Shown here in pieces: positions 1 through 5,093 of a DNA stretch of 5,093 nucleotides. Source of the stretch: a virus. Its lineage: Duplodnaviria; Heunggongvirae; Uroviricota; Caudoviricetes. The notes under the pieces were generated by a model. That model did not search any database. It worked only from the letters and a program-made list of their open reading frames with translations, and was not told the DNA's origin. A program made the position numbers and the translations under genes. Position 1 is the first letter of the stretch. Every line of letters begins with the position of its first letter. The DNA lies in IMG/VR virus record IMGVR_UViG_2541047905_000019, one strand, 5' to 3'.

Positions 1-177
1 GCGGAGGTAATACACCGTAAGAGCTGGAAAAACCGTGCAGAAGTGGAACTGGCCACACTCACGTGGGTGGACTGGTATAACAATCGACGATTGCTGGAAA
101 GGCTGGGCCATACTCCTCCGGCAGAAGCAGAAAAAGCTTATTATGCTTCCATCGGAAACGATGATCTGGCAGCCTGA
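1..177 (+). CDS. IS3-family (IS629-like) transposase OrfB, C-terminal 58 codons; 5' partial, runs off the window start
   Basis: Frame +1 is open from position 1 to TGA at 175-177. Translation AEVIHRKSWKNRAEVELATLTWVDWYNNRRLLERLGHTPPAEAEKAYYASIGNDDLAA matches the conserved C-terminal tail of IS3-family DDE transposases (WxxWYNxxRxHxxLG-like motif). Confidence 0.85.
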   Translation, partial: AEVIHRKSWKNRAEVELATLTWVDWYNNRRLLERLGHTPPAEAEKAYYASIGNDDLAA

Positions 178-219
178 GTTCACAGATAAAATACTCTCCA
201 GGAAACCCGGGGCGGTTCA
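1..219 (+). mobile_element. Right-hand end of an IS629-type insertion sequence (IS3 family); the element continues upstream of the window
   Basis: Transposase OrfB C-terminus in frame +1 (1..177) is followed by the terminus ...GGAAACCCGGGGCGGTTCA ending at 219. This is the reverse complement of the TGAACCGCCCCGGG... end I recognise as the IS629/IS1203 terminal inverted repeat, and ends in the CA typical of IS3-family termini. From 220 the sequence is in-frame HD-domain coding sequence with no start codon. Exact IR length not verified. Confidence 0.8.
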
Positions 220-680
220 ATATCGCGGTTTCCCTTTCAAATATCTGTCGCTTTGCAGGACATCTTTCACACTTCTACAGTGTCGCCCAGCATGCGGTGC
301 TTTGCAGCCAGCTGGTGCCGCAGGAATTTGCTTTTGAAGCGTTAATGCATGATGCAACAGAAGCGTATTGCCAGGATATTCCCGCTCCACTGAAACGCCT
401 TCTTCCTGACTATAAACGGATGGAAGAAAAAATAGACGCCGTAATCCGTGAGAAATACGGGTTACCCCCGGTTATGAGCACGCCTGTGAAATATGCCGAT
501 CTCATCATGCTGGCAACCGAACGCCGCGATCTCGGGCTTGATGATGGCTCTTTCTGGCCAGTACTGGAAGGTATCCCGGCAACAGAAATGTTCAAAGTTA
601 TTCCACTGGCTCCGAGCCATGCCTACGGGATGTTTATGGAACGTTTTAACGAGTTATCGGAGTTACGCAAATGCGCATGA
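220..680 (+). pseudogene. yfdR: HD-domain metal-dependent phosphohydrolase (YfdR-like 5'-nucleotidase family), 5'-truncated by the IS insertion
   Basis: Frame +3 is open from 165 through TGA at 678-680 with no ATG/GTG/TTG before the GTG at 297. Translation from 222 reads IAVSLSNICRFAGHLSHFYSVAQHAVLCSQLVPQEFAFEALMHDATEAYCQD..., carrying the H...HD metal-binding signature. The reading frame crosses the IS terminus, so the native N-terminus and start are missing. The yfdR name is from memory of the E. coli K-12 CPS-53 homologue and is unverified. Confidence 0.6.
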
Positions 681-1033
681 ATGTTTTCGAAATGGAAGGG
701 TTTCTTCGCGGGAAATGTGTACCACGAGATCTGAAAGTGAATGAAACAAATGCTGAGTACCTGGTACGTAAATTCGATGCGCTTGAAGCTAAATGTGCGG
801 CACTGGAAAACAAAATAATACCAGTGTCAGCTGAACTGCCGCCAGCAAATGAAAGTGTTCTGTTATTTGATGCTAACGGAGAAGGCTGGCTAATTGGCTG
901 GCGTTCTCTCTGGTACACCTGGGGACAAAAAGAAACCGGAGAATGGCTGTGGACATTTCAGGTCGGGGACCTTGAAAACGTCAATATCACTCACTGGGCA
1001 GTAATGCCGAAAGCACCGAAGAATAAAAAATGA
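671..1033 (+). CDS. DUF551-domain prophage protein (YfdS-like), 120 aa
   Basis: ORF 671..1033 with GGAG at 659-662, 8 nt upstream of ATG 671; a second ATG at 677 overlaps the upstream stop as ATGA. C-terminal region ELPPANESVLLFDANGEGWLIGW...NVNITHWAVMPKAP matches my recollection of the DUF551 pattern (LPxxxxxVLv...G...W....THWmPlP). Family name and YfdS resemblance are from memory. Confidence 0.7.
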   Translation: MRMNVFEMEGFLRGKCVPRDLKVNETNAEYLVRKFDALEAKCAALENKIIPVSAELPPANESVLLFDANGEGWLIGWRSLWYTWGQKETGEWLWTFQVGDLENVNITHWAVMPKAPKNKK

Positions 1034-1233
1034 GCGTGATAAAAACTCATACAGGAATTGTTATCACCCGAGACGGTCCGCAGGTAAAAAAACTGCACCA
1101 GACAAAGCGGATGTGGGTCGTCGGAAAAAACGAGTTTTACCACAAAGAAACCGGACGCCGCCACTTTGCAGAAAATACTCGCCGCCGACTGCTGATCGAT
1201 ACCATCAAGCCTATCGAGGTGAAGCATGTTTAA
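1030..1233 (+). CDS. Hypothetical small basic protein, 67 aa
   Basis: ATG at 1030 overlaps the upstream stop (ATGA at 1030-1033). The protein has 15 K/R against 6 D/E plus 5 His, which would suit nucleic-acid binding. Weak SD (GAAGA at 1018-1022). No family recognised. Confidence 0.5.
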   Translation: MSVIKTHTGIVITRDGPQVKKLHQTKRMWVVGKNEFYHKETGRRHFAENTRRRLLIDTIKPIEVKHV

Positions 1234-1465
1234 ACAGAACGAAAAATCTATCGCTCAAATTGCTGAGTATATCCCGCGTGCGTGCCGGGGTATGCAGTTG
1301 CAGGAAGCCAAAGCACGCCTGGAGAAAAAAATTGCGCTCTATATCGATGACGGCTGTGATACTGCCGTTCTTAACGCGGCGTTCGCGCCAGCTCTTAACA
1401 GTCATACGCGAAAGTCTTTTTTTTCGTGCATCGCAGCGCAGATCCGTAAAGGAGGCAACCAGTGA
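1226..1465 (+). CDS. Hypothetical protein, 79 aa
   Basis: ATG at 1226 preceded by GAGG at 1216-1219 (6-nt spacer). Overlaps the upstream gene by 8 nt out of frame (ATGTTTAA). No family recognised. Confidence 0.55.
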   Translation: MFKQNEKSIAQIAEYIPRACRGMQLQEAKARLEKKIALYIDDGCDTAVLNAAFAPALNSHTRKSFFSCIAAQIRKGGNQ

Positions 1466-1998
1466 GCAACATTAACTATCAGGTACTGCGTGAGGCGGCA
1501 GAACGTGCAATTCCAGCAATGGAACGCCTGTTAATGTTGCCAGCTGATGATGATTTGTTAAGTGAACAGGAACTTAAAGATTACGGTGTGGATATTGATG
1601 CGCTCAATGCCTTCAAATTTCTGACCGGACCAGAAACCGTGCTGGCACTACTGGATGAACGGGAAAGAAACCAGCAATACATCAAACGCCGCGACCAGGA
1701 GAACGAGGATATTGCGCTTACGGTTGGGAAGCTGCGCGTTGAGCTTGAAGCAGCAAAATCAAAACTCAACGAGCAGCGCGAGTATTACGAGGGAGTTATC
1801 TCTGATGGGTGCAAGCGTATTGCTGAACTGGAAGCGCGGGAAGTTCAATTACCGACTCGCTACGACCTTCGATATGGACACCCGATAAATGCAGATGAGC
1901 GACAAGTCATGATACCTAAAGAAAATGGCAGTTGGCTTTACCTGATTGACCTAGAACACGCATTACGCGTCGCTGACATTCGCATCAAAGGAGAGTGA
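1462..1998 (+). CDS. Ead/Ea22-like prophage protein with central coiled-coil, 178 aa
   Basis: GTG start at 1462 overlaps the upstream stop (GTGA), with a strong SD AGGAGG at 1450-1455. N-terminus MSNINYQVLREAAERA... and the motif PETVLALLDERE resemble the Ead/Ea22-like family common in E. coli lambdoid prophages (from memory). The heptad-like, charged segment RDQENEDIALTVGKLRVELEAAKSKLNEQREYYE suggests a coiled coil. Confidence 0.6.
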   Translation: MSNINYQVLREAAERAIPAMERLLMLPADDDLLSEQELKDYGVDIDALNAFKFLTGPETVLALLDERERNQQYIKRRDQENEDIALTVGKLRVELEAAKSKLNEQREYYEGVISDGCKRIAELEAREVQLPTRYDLRYGHPINADERQVMIPKENGSWLYLIDLEHALRVADIRIKGE

Positions 1999-1999
1999 T

Positions 2000-2263
2000 A
2001 TGGCAACTTTGACAAAAAAAGAACAAGCATGGTTGAGCGAATTACAGGACGTTCTTGATCGCTGCCCATCACCGAAAAAAATTGGTTTTTACACCATTGG
2101 CGATAAAAGCATTTACCTGTATGACCTGCGCCGCATGGATGAAATCATGGAGGCTCTTGATAATCGTTCGTCAATGGATTGGTGTGTTGCTGTTCATGAT
2201 ATGAATGCCGGATTTGATGAAAAGATTTTATTCCCCTCATCAGTTGAAAGTACAGCAGGATAA
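2000..2263 (+). CDS. Hypothetical protein, 87 aa
   Basis: ATG at 2000 lies 1 nt after the upstream stop (TGA 1996-1998); SD AGGAGA at 1989-1994. No family recognised. Confidence 0.6.
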   Translation: MATLTKKEQAWLSELQDVLDRCPSPKKIGFYTIGDKSIYLYDLRRMDEIMEALDNRSSMDWCVAVHDMNAGFDEKILFPSSVESTAG

Positions 2264-2273
2264 GGACTAACAC

Positions 2274-3035
2274 ATGACCACTATTACCAAAGAGCGACTG
2301 CTGACAATCAGGCAGTGGCGCGAAACATACGGACCTGGTAGCAACGTTGTACTGCCAGCAGAAGAAGCGGAAGAACTGGCACGAATTGCTCTGGCATCGC
2401 TGGAAGCAGAGCCGATAGGTTTCCGTTGCAGGCGCAATGATAACCTTGGTGATTGGAGTTACGTATATCATCGAGAGCCAGATGATTTTGAGCGCAAACA
2501 TTTAGTGATAGAGGGCATTTACGCCGCCCCTCCAGCACCGGTAGTGCCTGAAGAAGCAACTCCGGAAAACGTAGAAATGCTCTCTGGCTATGTTTCAACG
2601 TACAAATTAACCGATAGCGAGCGCGATATTGCTGCCGAAATATGGAACGCCTGCCGCGCCGCCATGCTTCAGTCCGGAAACTTTCGGGAAAACAAGAATT
2701 CGTCAACCAATAATTTTCGGGAAATCGCGGAAACGTCAACCAACTATCCGGCAATTCCTAGTGAGGTGTTGTCCGCAATCCTGAAGGTTGCCAGGATTCG
2801 TGCCGATTTCGATGATTTTGACGGTGACAGGCGAGGTATCGGTGATTGTCTGGATGAGGCTGAGCAAGAGCTTATCGTTACCATTAACAAATATGCCAGT
2901 CAGTTGGCAGCAGAACCTATAGCGCCTAATGACGTTCGAGAGCAGACAGCCATTCCACAAGTTCCGGTAACTCCGGATGGTTGGATAAGCTGTAGTGAGC
3001 GAATGCCGGACGACAGGCAGGAGGTGAATCAATGA
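2274..3035 (+). CDS. Modular acidic prophage protein, 253 aa, with a Pro-rich linker, an internal duplicated segment and a C-terminal fragment resembling the start of a DUF551 domain
   Basis: ATG at 2274 with AAGGA at 2263-2267. Contains the linker AAPPAPVVPEEATPE, the in-frame repeat NFRENKNSSTN/NFREIAETSTN, and ends ...PDGWISCSERMPDDRQEVNQ*. That ending resembles the start of the DUF551 region in the 671..1033 protein (VSAELPPANESVLL) but stops before the W...THW..P part. Confidence 0.65.
   Translation: MTTITKERLLTIRQWRETYGPGSNVVLPAEEAEELARIALASLEAEPIGFRCRRNDNLGDWSYVYHREPDDFERKHLVIEGIYAAPPAPVVPEEATPENVEMLSGYVSTYKLTDSERDIAAEIWNACRAAMLQSGNFRENKNSSTNNFREIAETSTNYPAIPSEVLSAILKVARIRADFDDFDGDRRGIGDCLDEAEQELIVTINKYASQLAAEPIAPNDVREQTAIPQVPVTPDGWISCSERMPDDRQEVNQ
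2679..2744 (+). repeat. Imperfect 33-bp direct tandem duplication (2 units) inside the 253-aa CDS
   Basis: Unit 1 (2679..2711) aactttcgggaaaacaagaattcgtcaaccaat versus unit 2 (2712..2744) aattttcgggaaatcgcggaaacgtcaaccaac: 25 of 33 positions identical, with TTTCGGGAAA and CGTCAACCAA blocks conserved at fixed 33-bp spacing. In frame, so it encodes an 11-aa repeat. Confidence 0.8.
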
Positions 3036-3115
3036 GCTGGCCTGATGCAATCGTAACTCTGGGGGTGGTCTTCGCAGCAGCGTTTGTTGTGTTCTCGATT
3101 TGTCGATGGGGATAA
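3032..3115 (+). CDS. Micro-protein, 27 aa, predicted single transmembrane helix (MSWPDAIVTLGVVFAAAFVVFSICRWG); not in the supplied ORF track
   Basis: ATG at 3032 overlaps the stop of the 253-aa gene (ATGA). Strong SD GGAGG at 3020-3024 with a 7-nt spacer. An 18-residue hydrophobic core is flanked by W/D at the N-side and R/W at the C-side. Stop TAA at 3113-3115. Confidence 0.5.
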   Translation: MSWPDAIVTLGVVFAAAFVVFSICRWG

Positions 3116-3119
3116 CCAC

Positions 3120-3362
3120 ATGTTCGCTTTGATTCAACGCGGTCAGATATACACGGACAGAGCTGGATACCCCGTGGTGATTACTCGCATCACTGAGCAC
3201 TCAGTGTTCTTTCGACGGATGGACGGACGATCCGGGCGGGTACGCATTGGTGAGTTAAACTGCCTGTTCGAACATATTGACCACCAGGAGTACCGCAAAA
3301 TTCTCGCGGACACTGAGCAGGAAAAGCACCTGAAAAAATTACGAGCCATGAAAAGGAAGTAA
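3120..3362 (+). CDS. Hypothetical small prophage protein, 80 aa (possibly DUF4222-like)
   Basis: ATG at 3120 preceded by GGGGA at 3108-3112. The track's 3084 start is TTG with no SD and overlaps the micro-ORF, so ATG 3120 is preferred. Sequence MFALIQRGQIYTDRAGYPVVITRITEHSVFFRRMDG... The DUF4222 label is a tentative recollection. Confidence 0.65.
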   Translation: MFALIQRGQIYTDRAGYPVVITRITEHSVFFRRMDGRSGRVRIGELNCLFEHIDHQEYRKILADTEQEKHLKKLRAMKRK

Positions 3363-3365
3363 ACA

Positions 3366-3500
3366 ATGAATAAAGCATTTGAACGATGGGTCCACCAGCG
3401 TTACGGCAATCGCTATGATCTGACGCGAGATGTTGACGGTTTCTACTGTCGTGAAGTTGTGAAGCGAATGTTTGAAGTGTGGTGCCACTGCCGTGGATGA
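3366..3500 (+). CDS. Micro-protein, 44 aa, Cys/His-containing (MNKAFERWVHQRYGNRYDLTRDVDGFYCREVVKRMFEVWCHCRG); not in the supplied ORF track
   Basis: ATG at 3366 lies 3 nt after the upstream TAA, with SD AGGAAG at 3354-3359 (6-nt spacer). Stop TGA at 3498-3500. Cys28, Cys40, His41 and Cys42 could form a small metal site. Sits immediately upstream of xis. Confidence 0.45.
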   Translation: MNKAFERWVHQRYGNRYDLTRDVDGFYCREVVKRMFEVWCHCRG

Positions 3501-3518
3501 AAGTTTTATGAGGTTGGC

Positions 3519-3773
3519 ATGCAGACAATCATCTATCAGATAACCCCCAGCAAATGGTGTACGGAGAGAGTCCTTATTGCATCAACAGGGCTAAAGCCTG
3601 GCACCATTGAGCGGGCAAGAAGAAAGTCATGGATGCAGGGAAAAGAATACCGCCATTACGCTGTAGAAGGTGATCCGGGGCACTACAGTGAATGCCTGTA
3701 CAACATCGAAGAAATTATGCGATGGATCGAAAACCAGAAACAACCAGGTGCCAAAAATGCAAGTTCCGGTTAA
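3519..3773 (+). CDS. xis: Excisionase-like protein (lambda Xis-type winged-helix recombination directionality factor), 84 aa
   Basis: ATG at 3519 with GAGG at 3510-3513. Position immediately upstream of int. The pattern ...SKW...GLKPGTIERARRK....GKEYRHY... parallels the lambda Xis pattern (...eW....sletvrrWv......G.reYlfh). Confidence 0.65.
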   Translation: MQTIIYQITPSKWCTERVLIASTGLKPGTIERARRKSWMQGKEYRHYAVEGDPGHYSECLYNIEEIMRWIENQKQPGAKNASSG

Positions 3774-3806
3774 CCTGTTAATGCTCCTGGACGTCTGGGA
3801 GGTTTA

Positions 3807-5093
3807 ATGAGTAACGCATCATACCCGACAGGCGTTGAAAACCATGGAGGATCACTCCGTATATGGTTTCACTATAATGGCAAACGTGTCAGAGAAAACC
3901 TCGGTGTTCCTGACACAGCCAAAAACCGGAAGATCGCTGGTGAACTTCGCACTTCCGTTTGTTTTGCAATCAGAATGGGGAGTTTCGACTACGCCGCGCA
4001 GTTCCCTAATTCCCCTAACCTGAAACACTTTGGTCTGGGAAAAAGAGAGATAACCGTTAAGGCACTTTCGGAAAAATGGTTGGACCTTAAGAAAATTGAG
4101 ATTTGTGCGAATGCACTTAACCGTTACCAGTCAGTAATTAAAAACATGTTACCAATGTTAGGTGAAAAAAAACTGGTTTCATCCATAACAAAAGAGGATT
4201 TACTTTTCGTAAGGAGAGATTTGTTGACCGGTTACCAAAAGCTTTCTAATGGAAAGACTTCTTCCATAAAAGGGCGCTCAGTGGTCACGGTAAACTACTA
4301 TATGACAACCATAGCTGGAATGTTTCAATTTGCAACAGATAATGGTTATACCTCAGGAAACCCATTTAACGGTCTGGCTCCCTTAAAAAAGTCCAAGGTA
4401 AAACCAGATCCTCTCACCCGTGACGAATTTATTCGTTTTATTGAGGCTTGCCGTCATCAACAAACAAAAAACCTGTGGATTCTCGCTGTATACACGGGTA
4501 TTCGTCACGGGGAGTTGGTATCGCTGGCATGGGAAGATATAGACCTTAAAGCAAGGACTATAACCATCCGTAGAAATTATACAAAACTTGGCGAATTCAC
4601 TCCACCAAAAACCGATGCAGGCACCGGAAGGACAATTCATCTGGTTCAACCAGCTATTGATGCTCTTAAAAGCCAGGCGGAAATGACCATGCTTGGAAAG
4701 CAACATTCTGTAGAGGTGAAGCAGAGGGAATATGGGAGAACTGCTGTGCATAAATGCACTTTTGTTTTTAGTCCTCAGGTAACAAAACAGCAGCAGTTGT
4801 CCGGACCTCACTACAAGGTTGACTCCATCAGGGAGTCATGGACAAGTATCTTAAAACGCGCAGGTCTGAGACACAGAAAATCGTACCAATCCAGGCATAC
4901 TTATGCATGCTGGTCACTTGCCGCAGGAGCTAATCCTAGTTTTATCGCAAGCCAGATGGGCCACACAAACGCACAAATGGTATTCAATGTTTACGGAGCA
5001 TGGATGAAAGACAACAATCACGAACAGATAGAACTCCTTAACAAAAGACTATCTGAAAGTGTCCCATGTATGCCCCATAAGAAAGTTGGGTAA
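3807..5093 (+). CDS. int: Phage integrase, tyrosine site-specific recombinase, 428 aa
   Basis: ATG at 3807 preceded by GGGAGG at 3797-3802. C-terminal catalytic motifs are present: box I LAVYTGIRHGELVSLAWEDIDL (Arg) and box II SRHTYACWSLAAGANPSFIASQMGHTNAQMVFNVYGAWM (R-H...GH...Y). The N-terminus (LRIWFHYNGKRVRENLG) resembles an arm-type DNA-binding domain. Stop TAA at 5091-5093 is the last codon of the window. Confidence 0.9.
   Translation: MSNASYPTGVENHGGSLRIWFHYNGKRVRENLGVPDTAKNRKIAGELRTSVCFAIRMGSFDYAAQFPNSPNLKHFGLGKREITVKALSEKWLDLKKIEICANALNRYQSVIKNMLPMLGEKKLVSSITKEDLLFVRRDLLTGYQKLSNGKTSSIKGRSVVTVNYYMTTIAGMFQFATDNGYTSGNPFNGLAPLKKSKVKPDPLTRDEFIRFIEACRHQQTKNLWILAVYTGIRHGELVSLAWEDIDLKARTITIRRNYTKLGEFTPPKTDAGTGRTIHLVQPAIDALKSQAEMTMLGKQHSVEVKQREYGRTAVHKCTFVFSPQVTKQQQLSGPHYKVDSIRESWTSILKRAGLRHRKSYQSRHTYACWSLAAGANPSFIASQMGHTNAQMVFNVYGAWMKDNNHEQIELLNKRLSESVPCMPHKKVG

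Follow-up and report, generated by a model that had tools for sequence, protein, structure and literature searches.

The stretch of DNA analysed here (the window; 5,093 nucleotides) comes from a lambdoid prophage that lies beside mlrA and has a yfdP-yfdQ-yfdR-yfdS block in common with the K-12 element CPS-53. Between yfdS and the excisionase gene (xis) is a cassette of eight small genes, at positions 1030-3500. The features of the window are as follows.

1..219, + strand: IS3-family insertion sequence, right end; 1-177 encode the transposase C-terminus and are followed by the terminal repeat
220..680, + strand: yfdR (HD-domain 5'-deoxynucleotidase), 5'-truncated; flanking context, outside the cassette
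671..1033, + strand: yfdS (DUF551 protein, 120 aa); left flank of the cassette
1030..1233, + strand: orf67, 67 aa; start overlaps the yfdS stop (ATGA)
1226..1465, + strand: orf79, 79 aa; phrog_1344 at 1.2e-52
1462..1998, + strand: Ea22-like gene, 178 aa, GTG start after AAGGAGG; PF13935
2000..2263, + strand: orf87, 87 aa; phrog_1714 at 1e-50
2274..3035, + strand: orf253, 253 aa; separate PHROGs for separate segments
2679..2743, no strand: imperfect 33-bp tandem direct repeat in orf253 (repeat search, family D1)
2963..3035, + strand: DUF551 stub, the C-terminus of orf253; PF04448 partial match
3032..3115, + strand: orf27, 27 aa; ATG overlaps the upstream stop (ATGA), GGAGGTG Shine-Dalgarno
3120..3362, + strand: DUF4222 protein gene, 80 aa; PF13973
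3366..3500, + strand: orf44, 44 aa; phrog_3871 at 1.9e-32
3519..3773, + strand: excisionase (DUF1233, xisR type), right flank; PF06806 at 2e-29, PGAP name xisR
3807..5093, + strand: tyrosine integrase (PGAP annotation and gene neighbourhood in locus L001, below)

We found that all eight open reading frames (ORFs) of the cassette are intact and together cover 99.3% of the interval. The spacing between neighbours, in order, is -8, -4, +1, +10, -4, +4 and +3 nt; each pair either overlaps at its stop and start or is separated by no more than 10 nt. Shine-Dalgarno sequences, read by eye in the upstream sequences, are clear for six of the eight ORFs and weak for orf67 and the DUF4222 gene. These results bear out the initial annotation, which described co-directional ORFs of 27 to 253 aa with scarcely any intergenic space and, for the most part, credible Shine-Dalgarno sequences. 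However, ORF tiling is a poor discriminator because Markov-shuffled copies still reach a mean ORF coverage of 73%. The sole ORF statistic that stood out was the longest ORF (253 aa, where 500 shuffles gave at most 204).

The genuine evidence for genes is homology rather than tiling. Seven of the eight ORFs match PHROG families (E = 1e-32 to 1e-82), the exception being orf27, and the exact sequences of these seven proteins are found on 429 to >1000 contigs each in public collections. RefSeq/PGAP annotates seven of the eight genes in a prophage that is 100% identical (L001); the Ea22-like gene is labelled a pseudogene there and orf27 is missing. Every PHROG match for the cassette carries the annotation 'unknown function'. 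Consistent with the earlier statement that no enzyme could be assigned, searches of Pfam and NCBIfam placed none of the ORFs in an enzyme family, and by sequence none matched a solved structure in the PDB.

An IS3-family element is inserted into yfdR, with the cassette on one side of it and the presumed early-left promoter on the other. Copies annotated as 'IS3 family transposase' that match bases 1-225 occur in 4123 genomes, the best of them with 99.6% identity. Bases 220-5093 (4874) are 100% identical in four other complete genomes, and in the IS-free prophage identity to the window begins only at base 220. The first ~25 codons of yfdR are missing because of the insertion; the remainder aligns with residues 26-178 of K-12 YfdR at 97% identity (phrog_318 at 1.9e-71; PGAP name yfdR). 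The yfdS product is 98% identical to K-12 YfdS over 117 aa (phrog_583 at 1.9e-81), with a weak match to PF04448.

In L001 the gene order is cI-like repressor, yfdP/Q/R/S, cassette, xis, int, mlrA. The same order is found in L003, L004 and L005, with different integrases and attachment sites. A rho-independent terminator-like site follows the repressor gene (L001 9812-9831), and directly after it is a near-consensus promoter-like site, TTGACA-16-CATAAT (L001 9840-9867). The window itself has no excess of promoter-like sites (4 found, 6.5 expected) or of terminator-like sites (9 found, 5.5 expected).

The cassette was initially described as mosaic, and a comparison of related prophages was proposed to see which genes vary as a unit. 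Across 5426 complete E. coli genomes the mosaicism was upheld, and the cassette as a whole did not behave as a unit. Some part of it is present in 3527 genomes, while just 13 carry 80% of the set or more. The pair orf67 and orf79, which travel together with orf79 always adjoining orf67, is in 837 genomes; orf87, which moves as an independent unit and is almost always full length, is in 979 and also on ~97-kb plasmids; orf27-DUF4222-orf44 is in 590. The cassette is not one system; its sub-modules recur separately. The initial annotation had named a missing phenotype combined with a gene set not conserved among related prophages as counting against its reading, and the set as a whole is not conserved. 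Recombination breakpoints lie inside the Ea22-like gene and orf253. We suggest that the small early genes of the cassette fall into three or more modules, each of which can be exchanged independently: orf67-orf79, after the yfd block; an Ea22-type coiled-coil protein with the variable acidic proteins of orf87 and the chimeric orf253; and DUF551 (only a stub here)-orf27-DUF4222-orf44, directly upstream of xis.

In the left-hand part, the orf67 product is very basic (pI 10.8), and its predicted fold is a small all-beta domain. The orf79 product is also basic, and neither it nor the acidic orf87 product has a Pfam or PDB match. The Ea22-like protein, reported at the outset as Ead/Ea22-like, matches PF13935 (Ead/Ea22) at 2.5e-36 over residues 2-124. 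Its alignment with lambda Ea22 (141 aa, E = 1e-46) shows 60% identity and covers the N-terminal and coiled-coil part. Its C-terminal domain differs from that of lambda; the same type is present in protein P0296, and 429 contigs carry an identical 178-aa protein. The ORF is intact despite the PGAP pseudogene flag. Pro-lysogenic phenotypes of Ea22 (PMC7093339) and its tetrameric state (PMC10834534) have been published.

We found that orf253 is chimeric, with an N-terminal module of ~100 aa, a central module at ~101-230 and a DUF551 stub at the end. Its homologue in L004 matches only residues ~100-253, and O26 has the central module as a pseudogene fragment. The two copies of the repeat at 2679..2743 are 78% identical, both contain TTTCGGGAAA, and they encode NFRENKNSSTN and NFREIAETSTN, with conservation at the protein level in L004 and L005. 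The DUF551 fragment recognised initially is confirmed: PF04448 matches only residues 236-251 (16 residues; profile positions 1-16 of 68). Alignment with the intact DUF551 genes of L003 and L005 reveals a deletion. The first ~16 residues of DUF551 are fused to the last residues (RQEVNQ*) of the canonical C-terminus, and therefore the body of the domain has been deleted. The tail DDRQEVNQ is present in 42 of 91 sampled viral loci.

orf27 (MSWPDAIVTLGVVFAAAFVVFSICRWG) is predicted to encode a single-pass membrane micro-protein, with hydropathy up to 2.8. No coding sequence is annotated at its position in four E. coli prophage loci (PGAP), where an 84-nt 'gap' stands in its place, or in a fifth copy on a phage-plasmid. 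It had no Pfam or PHROG family match, and its exact sequence was not found in a 15-billion-protein collection. There are 14 distinct alleles, all of 27 codons, with pN/pS of 0.36 and 11, 8 and 17 variable sites at the three codon positions. The ORF is coding-conserved and coupled to the upstream gene in 91 of 91 sampled loci. These patterns indicate that orf27 is a conserved coding gene under purifying selection, overlooked in the annotation examined.

A 143-aa Ea22-like protein (P0070), named 'enterohemolysin 2' by one source, ends in 27 residues, MSWPDAFAIVGVAMSIALIVFAIYRWG, that are homologous to orf27. This protein stems from an early region of the same type and may be the published product of the Ehly2 determinant of the E. 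coli O26 phage C3208. In P0070 the Ea22-like part and the peptide are fused, whereas in the window they are separate genes ~1 kb apart. According to Oscarsson et al. 2002, as cited in PMC7093339, ehly determinants release the host cytolysin ClyA and are not haemolysins themselves. The phenotype need not stem from the peptide, because Ehly1, which is RecT and has no membrane segment, also causes ClyA release (PMC8767327).

The DUF4222 protein (80 aa; 92 aa if translated from an in-frame TTG at 3084) belongs to the family of RgdR (PMC3378721, PMC10877973). RgdR (ECs1581; cryptic prophage CP-933C/Sp7 of E. coli O157:H7) is a pleiotropic prophage regulator with weak and non-specific DNA binding (PMC3378721). 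Both are small, very basic, prophage-encoded PF13973 proteins with a pI of 10.09 (PMC3378721 for RgdR), and an R-G-x-I-Y-x-D motif aligns between them. However, identity is only 41% over 27 residues, RgdR is longer (99 aa), and the window protein has RGQ in place of the RGD motif behind RgdR's name. The settings also differ: RgdR adjoins a primase gene in a P4-like element, whereas the window gene is near xis in a lambdoid operon, in UPEC-type hosts without the LEE. In the structural model a Tudor/SH3-like barrel leads into a long, basic helix at the C-terminus; the model is nearest to RNA-polymerase-binding Tudor domains, which is a weak lead. Direct binding of RNA polymerase by an exo-xis protein, lambda Orf73/TraR, provides a precedent (PMC9239242). 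YfdR, encoded in the flank, binds DnaA (PMC4776307). The Cys/His-containing orf44 product has no Pfam or PDB match; in every occurrence of the module its gene is flanked by the DUF4222 gene and xis, and in L001, L003, L004 and L005 it follows DUF4222 directly.

The slot is a familiar one. The exo-xis region of lambda and Stx phages (ea22, ea8.5, orf60a, orf61, orf63, orf73) likewise occupies the distal leftward early operon directly upstream of xis-int, and it too is highly mosaic, with small ORFs of mostly unknown function and an Ea22 homologue. The phenotypes published for it bear on the balance between lysis and lysogeny (PMC3824215, PMC7093339). Unlike lambda, the window prophage has the yfdP-Q-R-S block instead of exo/bet. 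Ea22 alone is common to both; lambda Orf55, Ea8.5, Orf61, Orf63 and Orf60a have no homologue in the cassette, and the DUF551-orf27-DUF4222-orf44 module is not in lambda. CPS-53 (yfdP-yfdQ-yfdR-yfdS-yfdT-ypdJ-torI) has the same order and orientation toward a recombination directionality factor. However, just yfdT and ypdJ stand in place of the eight genes, and TorI in place of the window's XisR-type excisionase; direct comparison with YfdT and YpdJ showed no likeness in any cassette protein. The ea genes of P22 (eaA-eaI, ead) form a series of small, mosaic and non-essential genes in the early-left region, with the recombination functions on one side and xis-int on the other, and P22 Ead is in the same Pfam family as Ea22. 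The likeness of P22-type ea genes to the cassette is organisational only. GenBank applies the label 'EaA' to a DUF551 protein of related Shigella phages.

The position of the cassette is that of the variable, integrase-proximal accessory slot proposed initially, in a lambdoid early-left operon. The further proposal, that the cassette is anti-defence or host-takeover cargo, was not borne out, and we regard it as unlikely that its small, especially acidic, proteins inhibit restriction, abortive infection or other immunity early, like Ral, Gam and Abc of lambda/P22. The slot is presumably transcribed early and is hypervariable, as is typical of counter-defence loci, and the orf253 (net charge -19), Ea22-like (-11) and orf87 (-5) products are acidic, like DNA mimics. 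The left-hand genes, as well as DUF551-orf27, are also carried by a P1-like phage-plasmid in which neither xis nor int is close by, and the role is therefore not bound to integration. However, PADLOC gave no match to a defence system, the cassette proteins have no similarity to named anti-restriction or anti-defence entries in PHROG, Pfam or PDB, and direct protein comparison found no homologues of lambda Ral, Gam, Kil, CIII or Ea10. Relatives studied experimentally point only to regulation and lysogeny (PMC7093339, PMC3378721). The initial term 'dark matter' is overstated for three genes whose relatives have published phenotypes: Ea22, DUF4222 (RgdR) and orf27 (the 'enterohemolysin 2' tail).

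It is equally doubtful that the xis-proximal genes, above all DUF4222, reprogram host expression from the resident prophage, changing virulence, motility or surface properties in favour of the lysogen. RgdR does act from a cryptic prophage in uninduced O157:H7 cells, altering T3S, motility and Congo-red binding, and UPEC and commensal strains have variants of it (PMC3378721). The genomes that match the window best are from human ExPEC/UPEC isolates, and yfdS and yfdQ of CPS-53 influence stress tolerance (PMC4776307). However, the window protein is only a distant relative of RgdR, there is no convincing internal promoter or terminator around its gene, and tight translational coupling to upstream early genes favours expression with the early operon. 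Least probable is that the cassette is mostly non-functional recombination debris in a defective prophage. The IS insertion, the deleted DUF551 domain, the pseudogene flag and several pseudogene fragments in related loci could be taken as decay. But no ORF is broken, the identity to four other complete genomes and the unchanged proteins on hundreds of contigs each argue for maintenance, as does the selection on orf27. The stub form of DUF551 is itself common, and the 178-aa form of Ea22, including its C-terminal domain, recurs.

The cassette is an ordinary mosaic early accessory region of lambda-like E. coli prophages and not a new system. We favour, with a probability of roughly 0.6, the view that the interval is the integrase-proximal end of a lambdoid leftward early operon, built of exchangeable modules with small regulatory products. 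All the cassette genes would be read as one translationally coupled message, starting at the promoter that directly follows the terminator of the repressor gene and running into xis and int. Cassette expression may be altered in the window genome, because the insertion in yfdR separates the cassette from this promoter. The Ea22-like protein may be an oligomeric pro-lysogenic factor, the orf27 product a single-pass inner-membrane peptide, and the DUF4222 protein a basic Tudor-like regulator acting on DNA or the transcription machinery, as RgdR appears to be. Together, we infer, the products would be small proteins without enzymatic activity that bind to components of the host and adjust the lysis/lysogeny decision and host physiology after induction or infection.

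We found that the interval at 1030-3500 on the plus strand holds eight ORFs, of 67, 79, 178, 87, 253, 27, 80 and 44 amino acids (orf67, orf79, an Ea22-like protein, orf87, orf253, orf27, a DUF4222 protein and orf44). Adjacent ORFs share 4-8 nt or leave gaps of 1-10 nt, and together they span 99.3% of the interval. Tiling of this kind alone is weak evidence, as ORF coverage of shuffled sequence was still 73% on average. We consider the ORFs to be genes because of homology: seven of the eight matched PHROG families (1e-32 to 1e-82), exact sequences of the same seven proteins are present on hundreds of public contigs, and seven of the eight are listed in the RefSeq annotation of a 100%-identical reference prophage (L001). 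Clear Shine-Dalgarno sequences precede 6/8 ORFs (upstream sequences read by eye). The coordinates, the coverage and the homology of seven proteins bear out the initial annotation, which described eight co-directional ORFs with almost no intergenic space, most with a credible Shine-Dalgarno sequence.

Minus-strand ORFs of 112-154 aa also run across the cassette. We rejected these as genes; a single weak PHROG match (5e-5) was found, and the others had none. The ORF with the match is:
2736-3200, minus strand: antisense 154-aa ORF overlapping orf253, orf27 and the DUF4222 gene, with a match to phrog_23547
This family was probably assembled from mis-called antisense ORFs of the same region.

Comparison of complete genomes indicates that the cassette is a mosaic and no single unit. 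Of 5426 complete E. coli genomes, 3527 had a match to at least a portion of the 2471-bp interval, and only 13 had 80% or more of it. Sub-modules were found in 590-979 genomes: orf67-orf79 in 837, orf87 in 979, and orf27-DUF4222-orf44 in 590 (a count of matches to module sequence, not of the peptide gene orf27). The ends of the matches are concentrated both at gene boundaries and inside the Ea22 gene and orf253. The sub-module frequencies and the breakpoints inside these two genes uphold the mosaic proposed initially, and the figure of 13 genomes argues against the genes varying as one unit.

Related arrangements were seen in three other prophages, which have different integrases and in which the outer order is kept and the middle differs, and on a plasmid:
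Common outer order: yfd block, orf67, orf79, Ea22 variant ... DUF551 gene, gap, DUF4222 gene, orf44 or orf48, xis, int
Plasmid NZ_CP090325.1 (locus L127), 5991-9194: left half of the cassette, a DUF551 gene and an unannotated orf27 homologue
On this 97-kb plasmid the order is orf67-orf79-Ea22-DUF7739-Ea22-orf87-...-DUF551; the DUF7739 gene and one of the two Ea22 copies are insertions relative to the cassette. Neither xis nor int is nearby, which means that the link of the cassette genes to integration is not obligatory. We take the plasmid to be a P1-like phage-plasmid because phd/doc, humD and a pol III theta gene are present. On this assignment, the locus shows that cassette genes are exchanged between integrating lambdoid prophages and phage-plasmids.

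Bases 220-5093 of the window are 100% identical to the reference prophage in E. coli UPEC129 and to prophages in three more complete genomes. The gene order in UPEC129 is cI-like repressor, yfdP, yfdQ, yfdR, yfdS, the eight ORFs, an xisR-type excisionase, integrase and the host gene mlrA (yehV), a known attachment locus of lambdoid and Stx phages. The yfdR and yfdS genes of the window are 97-98% identical to those of CPS-53, a cryptic prophage of K-12. In CPS-53, however, yfdS is separated from the directionality factor TorI by yfdT and ypdJ only, whereas the window has the cassette in the same slot. K-12 YfdT, YpdJ and TorI had no match among the window proteins.

In the reference prophage, a strong terminator-like hairpin (L001 9812-9831) directly follows the cI-like repressor gene. 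Immediately beyond it lies a near-consensus sigma-70 promoter-like site (TTGACA-16-CATAAT, 9840-9867) that points into the yfd-cassette gene string and is separated from yfdP by ~500-700 bp without an annotated gene. This site could serve as the early-left promoter, and its leader would then be long. Promoter-like and terminator-like sites in the window showed no excess relative to shuffled sequence and formed no moron-like bracket, and an Rfam scan of the whole window (E <= 1) gave no match. Because the hairpin and promoter-like site follow the repressor and there is no such excess inside the window, we liken the layout to lambda cI-terminator-pL, which it mirrors. The yfd genes and the cassette would lie on one leftward early transcript.

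The yfdR gene of the window is interrupted:
1-219: IS3-family element ending at base 219 within yfdR, between the candidate promoter and the cassette; the insertion (junction 219/220) removes ~25 codons of yfdR
The terminal repeat of the element is similar to that of the IS629/IS1203 group, and its transposase reads towards the cassette. The insertion allele was in no complete E. coli genome of the collection. The element could block transcription or supply it by read-through.

In position and organization the cassette appears to be a counterpart of the exo-xis (ea) region of lambda, but its gene content differs except for ea22. Its immediate downstream neighbors are xis-int, and the cI-like repressor gene lies upstream, in a prophage that has the yfdPQRS block instead of exo/bet. 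Of the lambda set orf60a-orf63-orf61-orf73-ea22, the comparison covered the four members annotated in the lambda record used (all but orf73), and only ea22 has a homologue in the cassette. No match was found to lambda Xis, Orf55, Ea8.5, Orf61, Orf63, Orf60a, Kil, CIII, Ea10, Ral or Orf28. No cassette ORF matched an enzyme family in Pfam, the NCBIfam scan of all proteins was negative, PADLOC defence models (ten proteins scanned, E <= 0.1) gave no match, and PDB searches by sequence for seven proteins and by profile for two returned nothing below E = 0.01. After these searches, the initial statement that no motif can be assigned to a known enzyme stands. The slot is thus of a familiar kind, and what is new in the cassette is how phage families that are already catalogued, though for the most part uncharacterised, have been combined.

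The 178-aa protein is, on its sequence, a true Ea22 relative. It matched PF13935 (Ead/Ea22-like; E = 2.5e-36, 125.8 bits against a cutoff of 27, residues 2-124) and is 60% identical to lambda Ea22 over 141 aa (N-terminal and coiled-coil parts). The lambda-type C-terminal domain (dimeric alpha/beta, NMR) was not found, the alignment to lambda Ea22 stopping at residue 141, and PDB sequences gave only weak matches to unrelated proteins (best E = 0.011). Members of the Ea22 family are known to vary in their C-terminal domain (PMC10834534), and N-terminal and coiled-coil identity combined with a different C-terminal domain fits the mosaic pattern already published for them. Ea22 forms tetramers, and it is pro-lysogenic in phage lambda and in Stx phages (PMC7093339, PMC10834534). 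PGAP/RefSeq lists the gene as an incomplete pseudogene (L001 13300-13614; window 1519-1833). This label looks unwarranted because the 178-aa ORF (GTG start) is intact, is present on 429 contigs, and has a type of C-terminal domain that recurs elsewhere.

orf253 is a chimera. Its first ~100 residues are unlike those of the homologue in a related E. coli prophage (L004), the remainder is otherwise identical, and its central part is a pseudogene fragment in O26. The match to DUF551 (PF04448, ~68 residues) covers profile positions 1-16 only, and the complete domain is absent; in the alignment, the C-terminal end consists of the first 16 DUF551 residues fused to the last residues of that domain, with the domain body deleted. 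A full DUF551 domain is found in the upstream yfdS. The DDRQEVNQ tail of the stub occurs in 42 of 91 sampled viral loci. Repeated sequence was observed at two places:
2679-2743: imperfect 33-bp tandem repeat within orf253, with the near-palindrome TTTCGGGAAA in each copy
4064-4076: third, similar 13-mer inside int
The repeat in orf253 could be a protein-binding site or merely a duplicated peptide segment.

Structures were predicted for two of the eight cassette proteins. The model of orf67 is confident and all-beta (pLDDT 90.3), and it had no informative structural neighbor. For orf79, orf87, orf253 and orf44 the sequence searches gave no hint of function. In the protein collection, the 90%-identity cluster of orf44 holds unrelated DUF4222 proteins and that of the DUF4222 protein holds an unrelated Ea22-peptide fusion, both from neighboring genes; cluster membership in that collection is therefore an unreliable sign of homology here.

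The remaining ORF, orf27, falls in an 84-nt gap in the PGAP annotation of 4/4 E. coli prophages examined, and the phage-plasmid copy is also unannotated. The 27-aa product has a hydrophobic core of ~19 residues (15-residue hydropathy up to 2.8) and charged ends, with D5 and R25 close to the N- and C-terminus, respectively. Core and charged ends are kept in the 14 enterobacterial-type alleles, every one of 27 codons; variable sites number 11/8/17 by codon position and pN/pS is 0.36. The O26 copy, at ~70% DNA identity, keeps the ATG, length, core and ends (MSWPEAFAIVGVAISIALIIFSICRWG). By these features the short ORF is predicted to encode a small hydrophobic membrane peptide, with one transmembrane-length core and charged ends. 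Neither Pfam nor PHROG gave a family match, and the exact sequence was not in a collection of 15 billion proteins.

The orf27 ATG overlaps the upstream stop (ATGA) in 91/91 sampled loci, and the upstream ORF is usually a DUF551 gene or stub. DUF4222 follows in 80/91. On the phage-plasmid, the homologue comes after DUF551 and before a different gene, and the constant partner of orf27 is therefore the upstream gene. orf27 lies in the early operon and not in a lysis cassette, is invariably coupled upstream, and has neither an Rfam match nor an adjoining promoter-like site; we therefore class it neither as a holin nor as a type I toxin.

Scanning viral contigs with a pattern in which only the first ~7 codons were fixed gave 37 distinct peptides, ~30 of them of 22-33 residues with a hydrophobic core. 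More distant short ORFs that start with MSWP(D/E)A and continue into a hydrophobic stretch occur on viral contigs whose G+C ranges from 36 to 64%, and many of them are ATGA-coupled to a small ORF upstream:
Viral loci with distant MSWP(D/E)A ORFs: L015, L028, L037, L040, L041, L056, L061, L064, L092, L098, L102, L115
These may represent a much wider micro-protein family or be partly chance matches. Metagenome-derived frameshift fusions of orf27 and DUF4222 with 109-aa products (proteins P0113 and P0120, locus L113) may be artefacts of sequencing or may exist in nature as frameshift variants.

A 143-aa protein named 'enterohemolysin 2' (the name is from one source) is an Ea22-like protein with an orf27-type peptide fused in frame. 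In its closest relatives the Ea22-type ORF ends just before the point where fused forms run into the peptide. The ehly determinants were reported to bring about release of host ClyA and not to be haemolysins themselves (Oscarsson 2002, cited in PMC7093339). Ehly1, a RecT, gives the same phenotype (PMC8767327), and we therefore downgraded ClyA release from direct evidence to a lead that the peptide may be membrane-active.

The 80-aa protein matched the DUF4222 family (PF13973) with 51.3 bits (gathering 27; E = 8.2e-14; residues 4-54, profile positions 2-53/53). A longer 92-aa product from a TTG start was rejected: that exact sequence was not in the protein collection, and homologues that start upstream have unrelated or frameshifted N-terminal extensions, none conserved. 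The remaining homologues begin at MFALIQ. Whereas RgdR, a characterised member, has a functionally important RGD, the window protein has RGQ at the aligned position, and G and Q occupy these positions in 19/19 aligned DUF4222 homologues. The predicted model is a Tudor-like barrel whose nearest neighbors are RNAP-binding Tudor domains. This fold-level clue hints that the protein may control host transcription (LEE1, motility).

Our results are most consistent, at a probability of about 60%, with a polycistronic message from which small, non-enzymatic early proteins are made by coupled translation and act as host-directed modulators. Any single biochemical role for one of the proteins is less certain than this overall framing. 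Once the prophage is induced or a cell is infected, each protein, exchangeable independently of the others, would act on the balance of lysis and lysogeny and on the physiology of the host. The exo-xis region of Stx phages and lambda follows the same logic (PMC3824215, PMC10789677), as does the neighboring YfdR, a DnaA-binding protein (PMC4776307). Anti-defence cargo, for which the acidic cassette proteins would be the candidates, is unsupported and seems unlikely. Comparisons with lambda Ral, Kil, CIII and Ea10 and with annotated PHROG, Pfam and PDB entries showed no similarity to a characterised anti-defence inhibitor, fold comparison covering two of the eight proteins. We would also be surprised if the proteins were lysogenic-conversion regulators expressed from the resident prophage, and there is little chance that the cassette is decaying debris.

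We tentatively suggest, as a doubtful joint reading, that the xis-proximal module hides two undescribed host-targeting functions, an unannotated micro-protein family and RNAP-docking DUF4222 proteins. Micro-proteins of this family would consist of MSWP(D/E)A and a hydrophobic stretch of ~20 residues, and their translation would always be coupled to that of a DUF551 or Ea22-type gene. Early in infection they would enter the inner membrane, and this could explain the old 'Ehly2' ClyA release. DUF4222 proteins, including RgdR, would be CarD/UvrD-like Tudor domains that bind RNA polymerase at its beta lobe and touch DNA through a basic C-terminal helix.

Taken together, the eight genes form a routine shuffled lambdoid early accessory region that would not surprise a specialist and leaves the understanding of these phages unchanged; the micro-protein and the DUF4222/RgdR hypothesis are modest testable extras. 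Short genes like orf27 are easily overlooked in annotation, and a predicted, unannotated 27-codon membrane-peptide gene with a link to a supposed haemolysin determinant of earlier reports is a useful by-product. As a second by-product, RNA polymerase binding is a testable idea, based on the fold prediction, for the action of the EHEC virulence regulator RgdR and many prophage relatives and, if true, docking would provide a mechanism for the unexplained pleiotropic regulation by RgdR.
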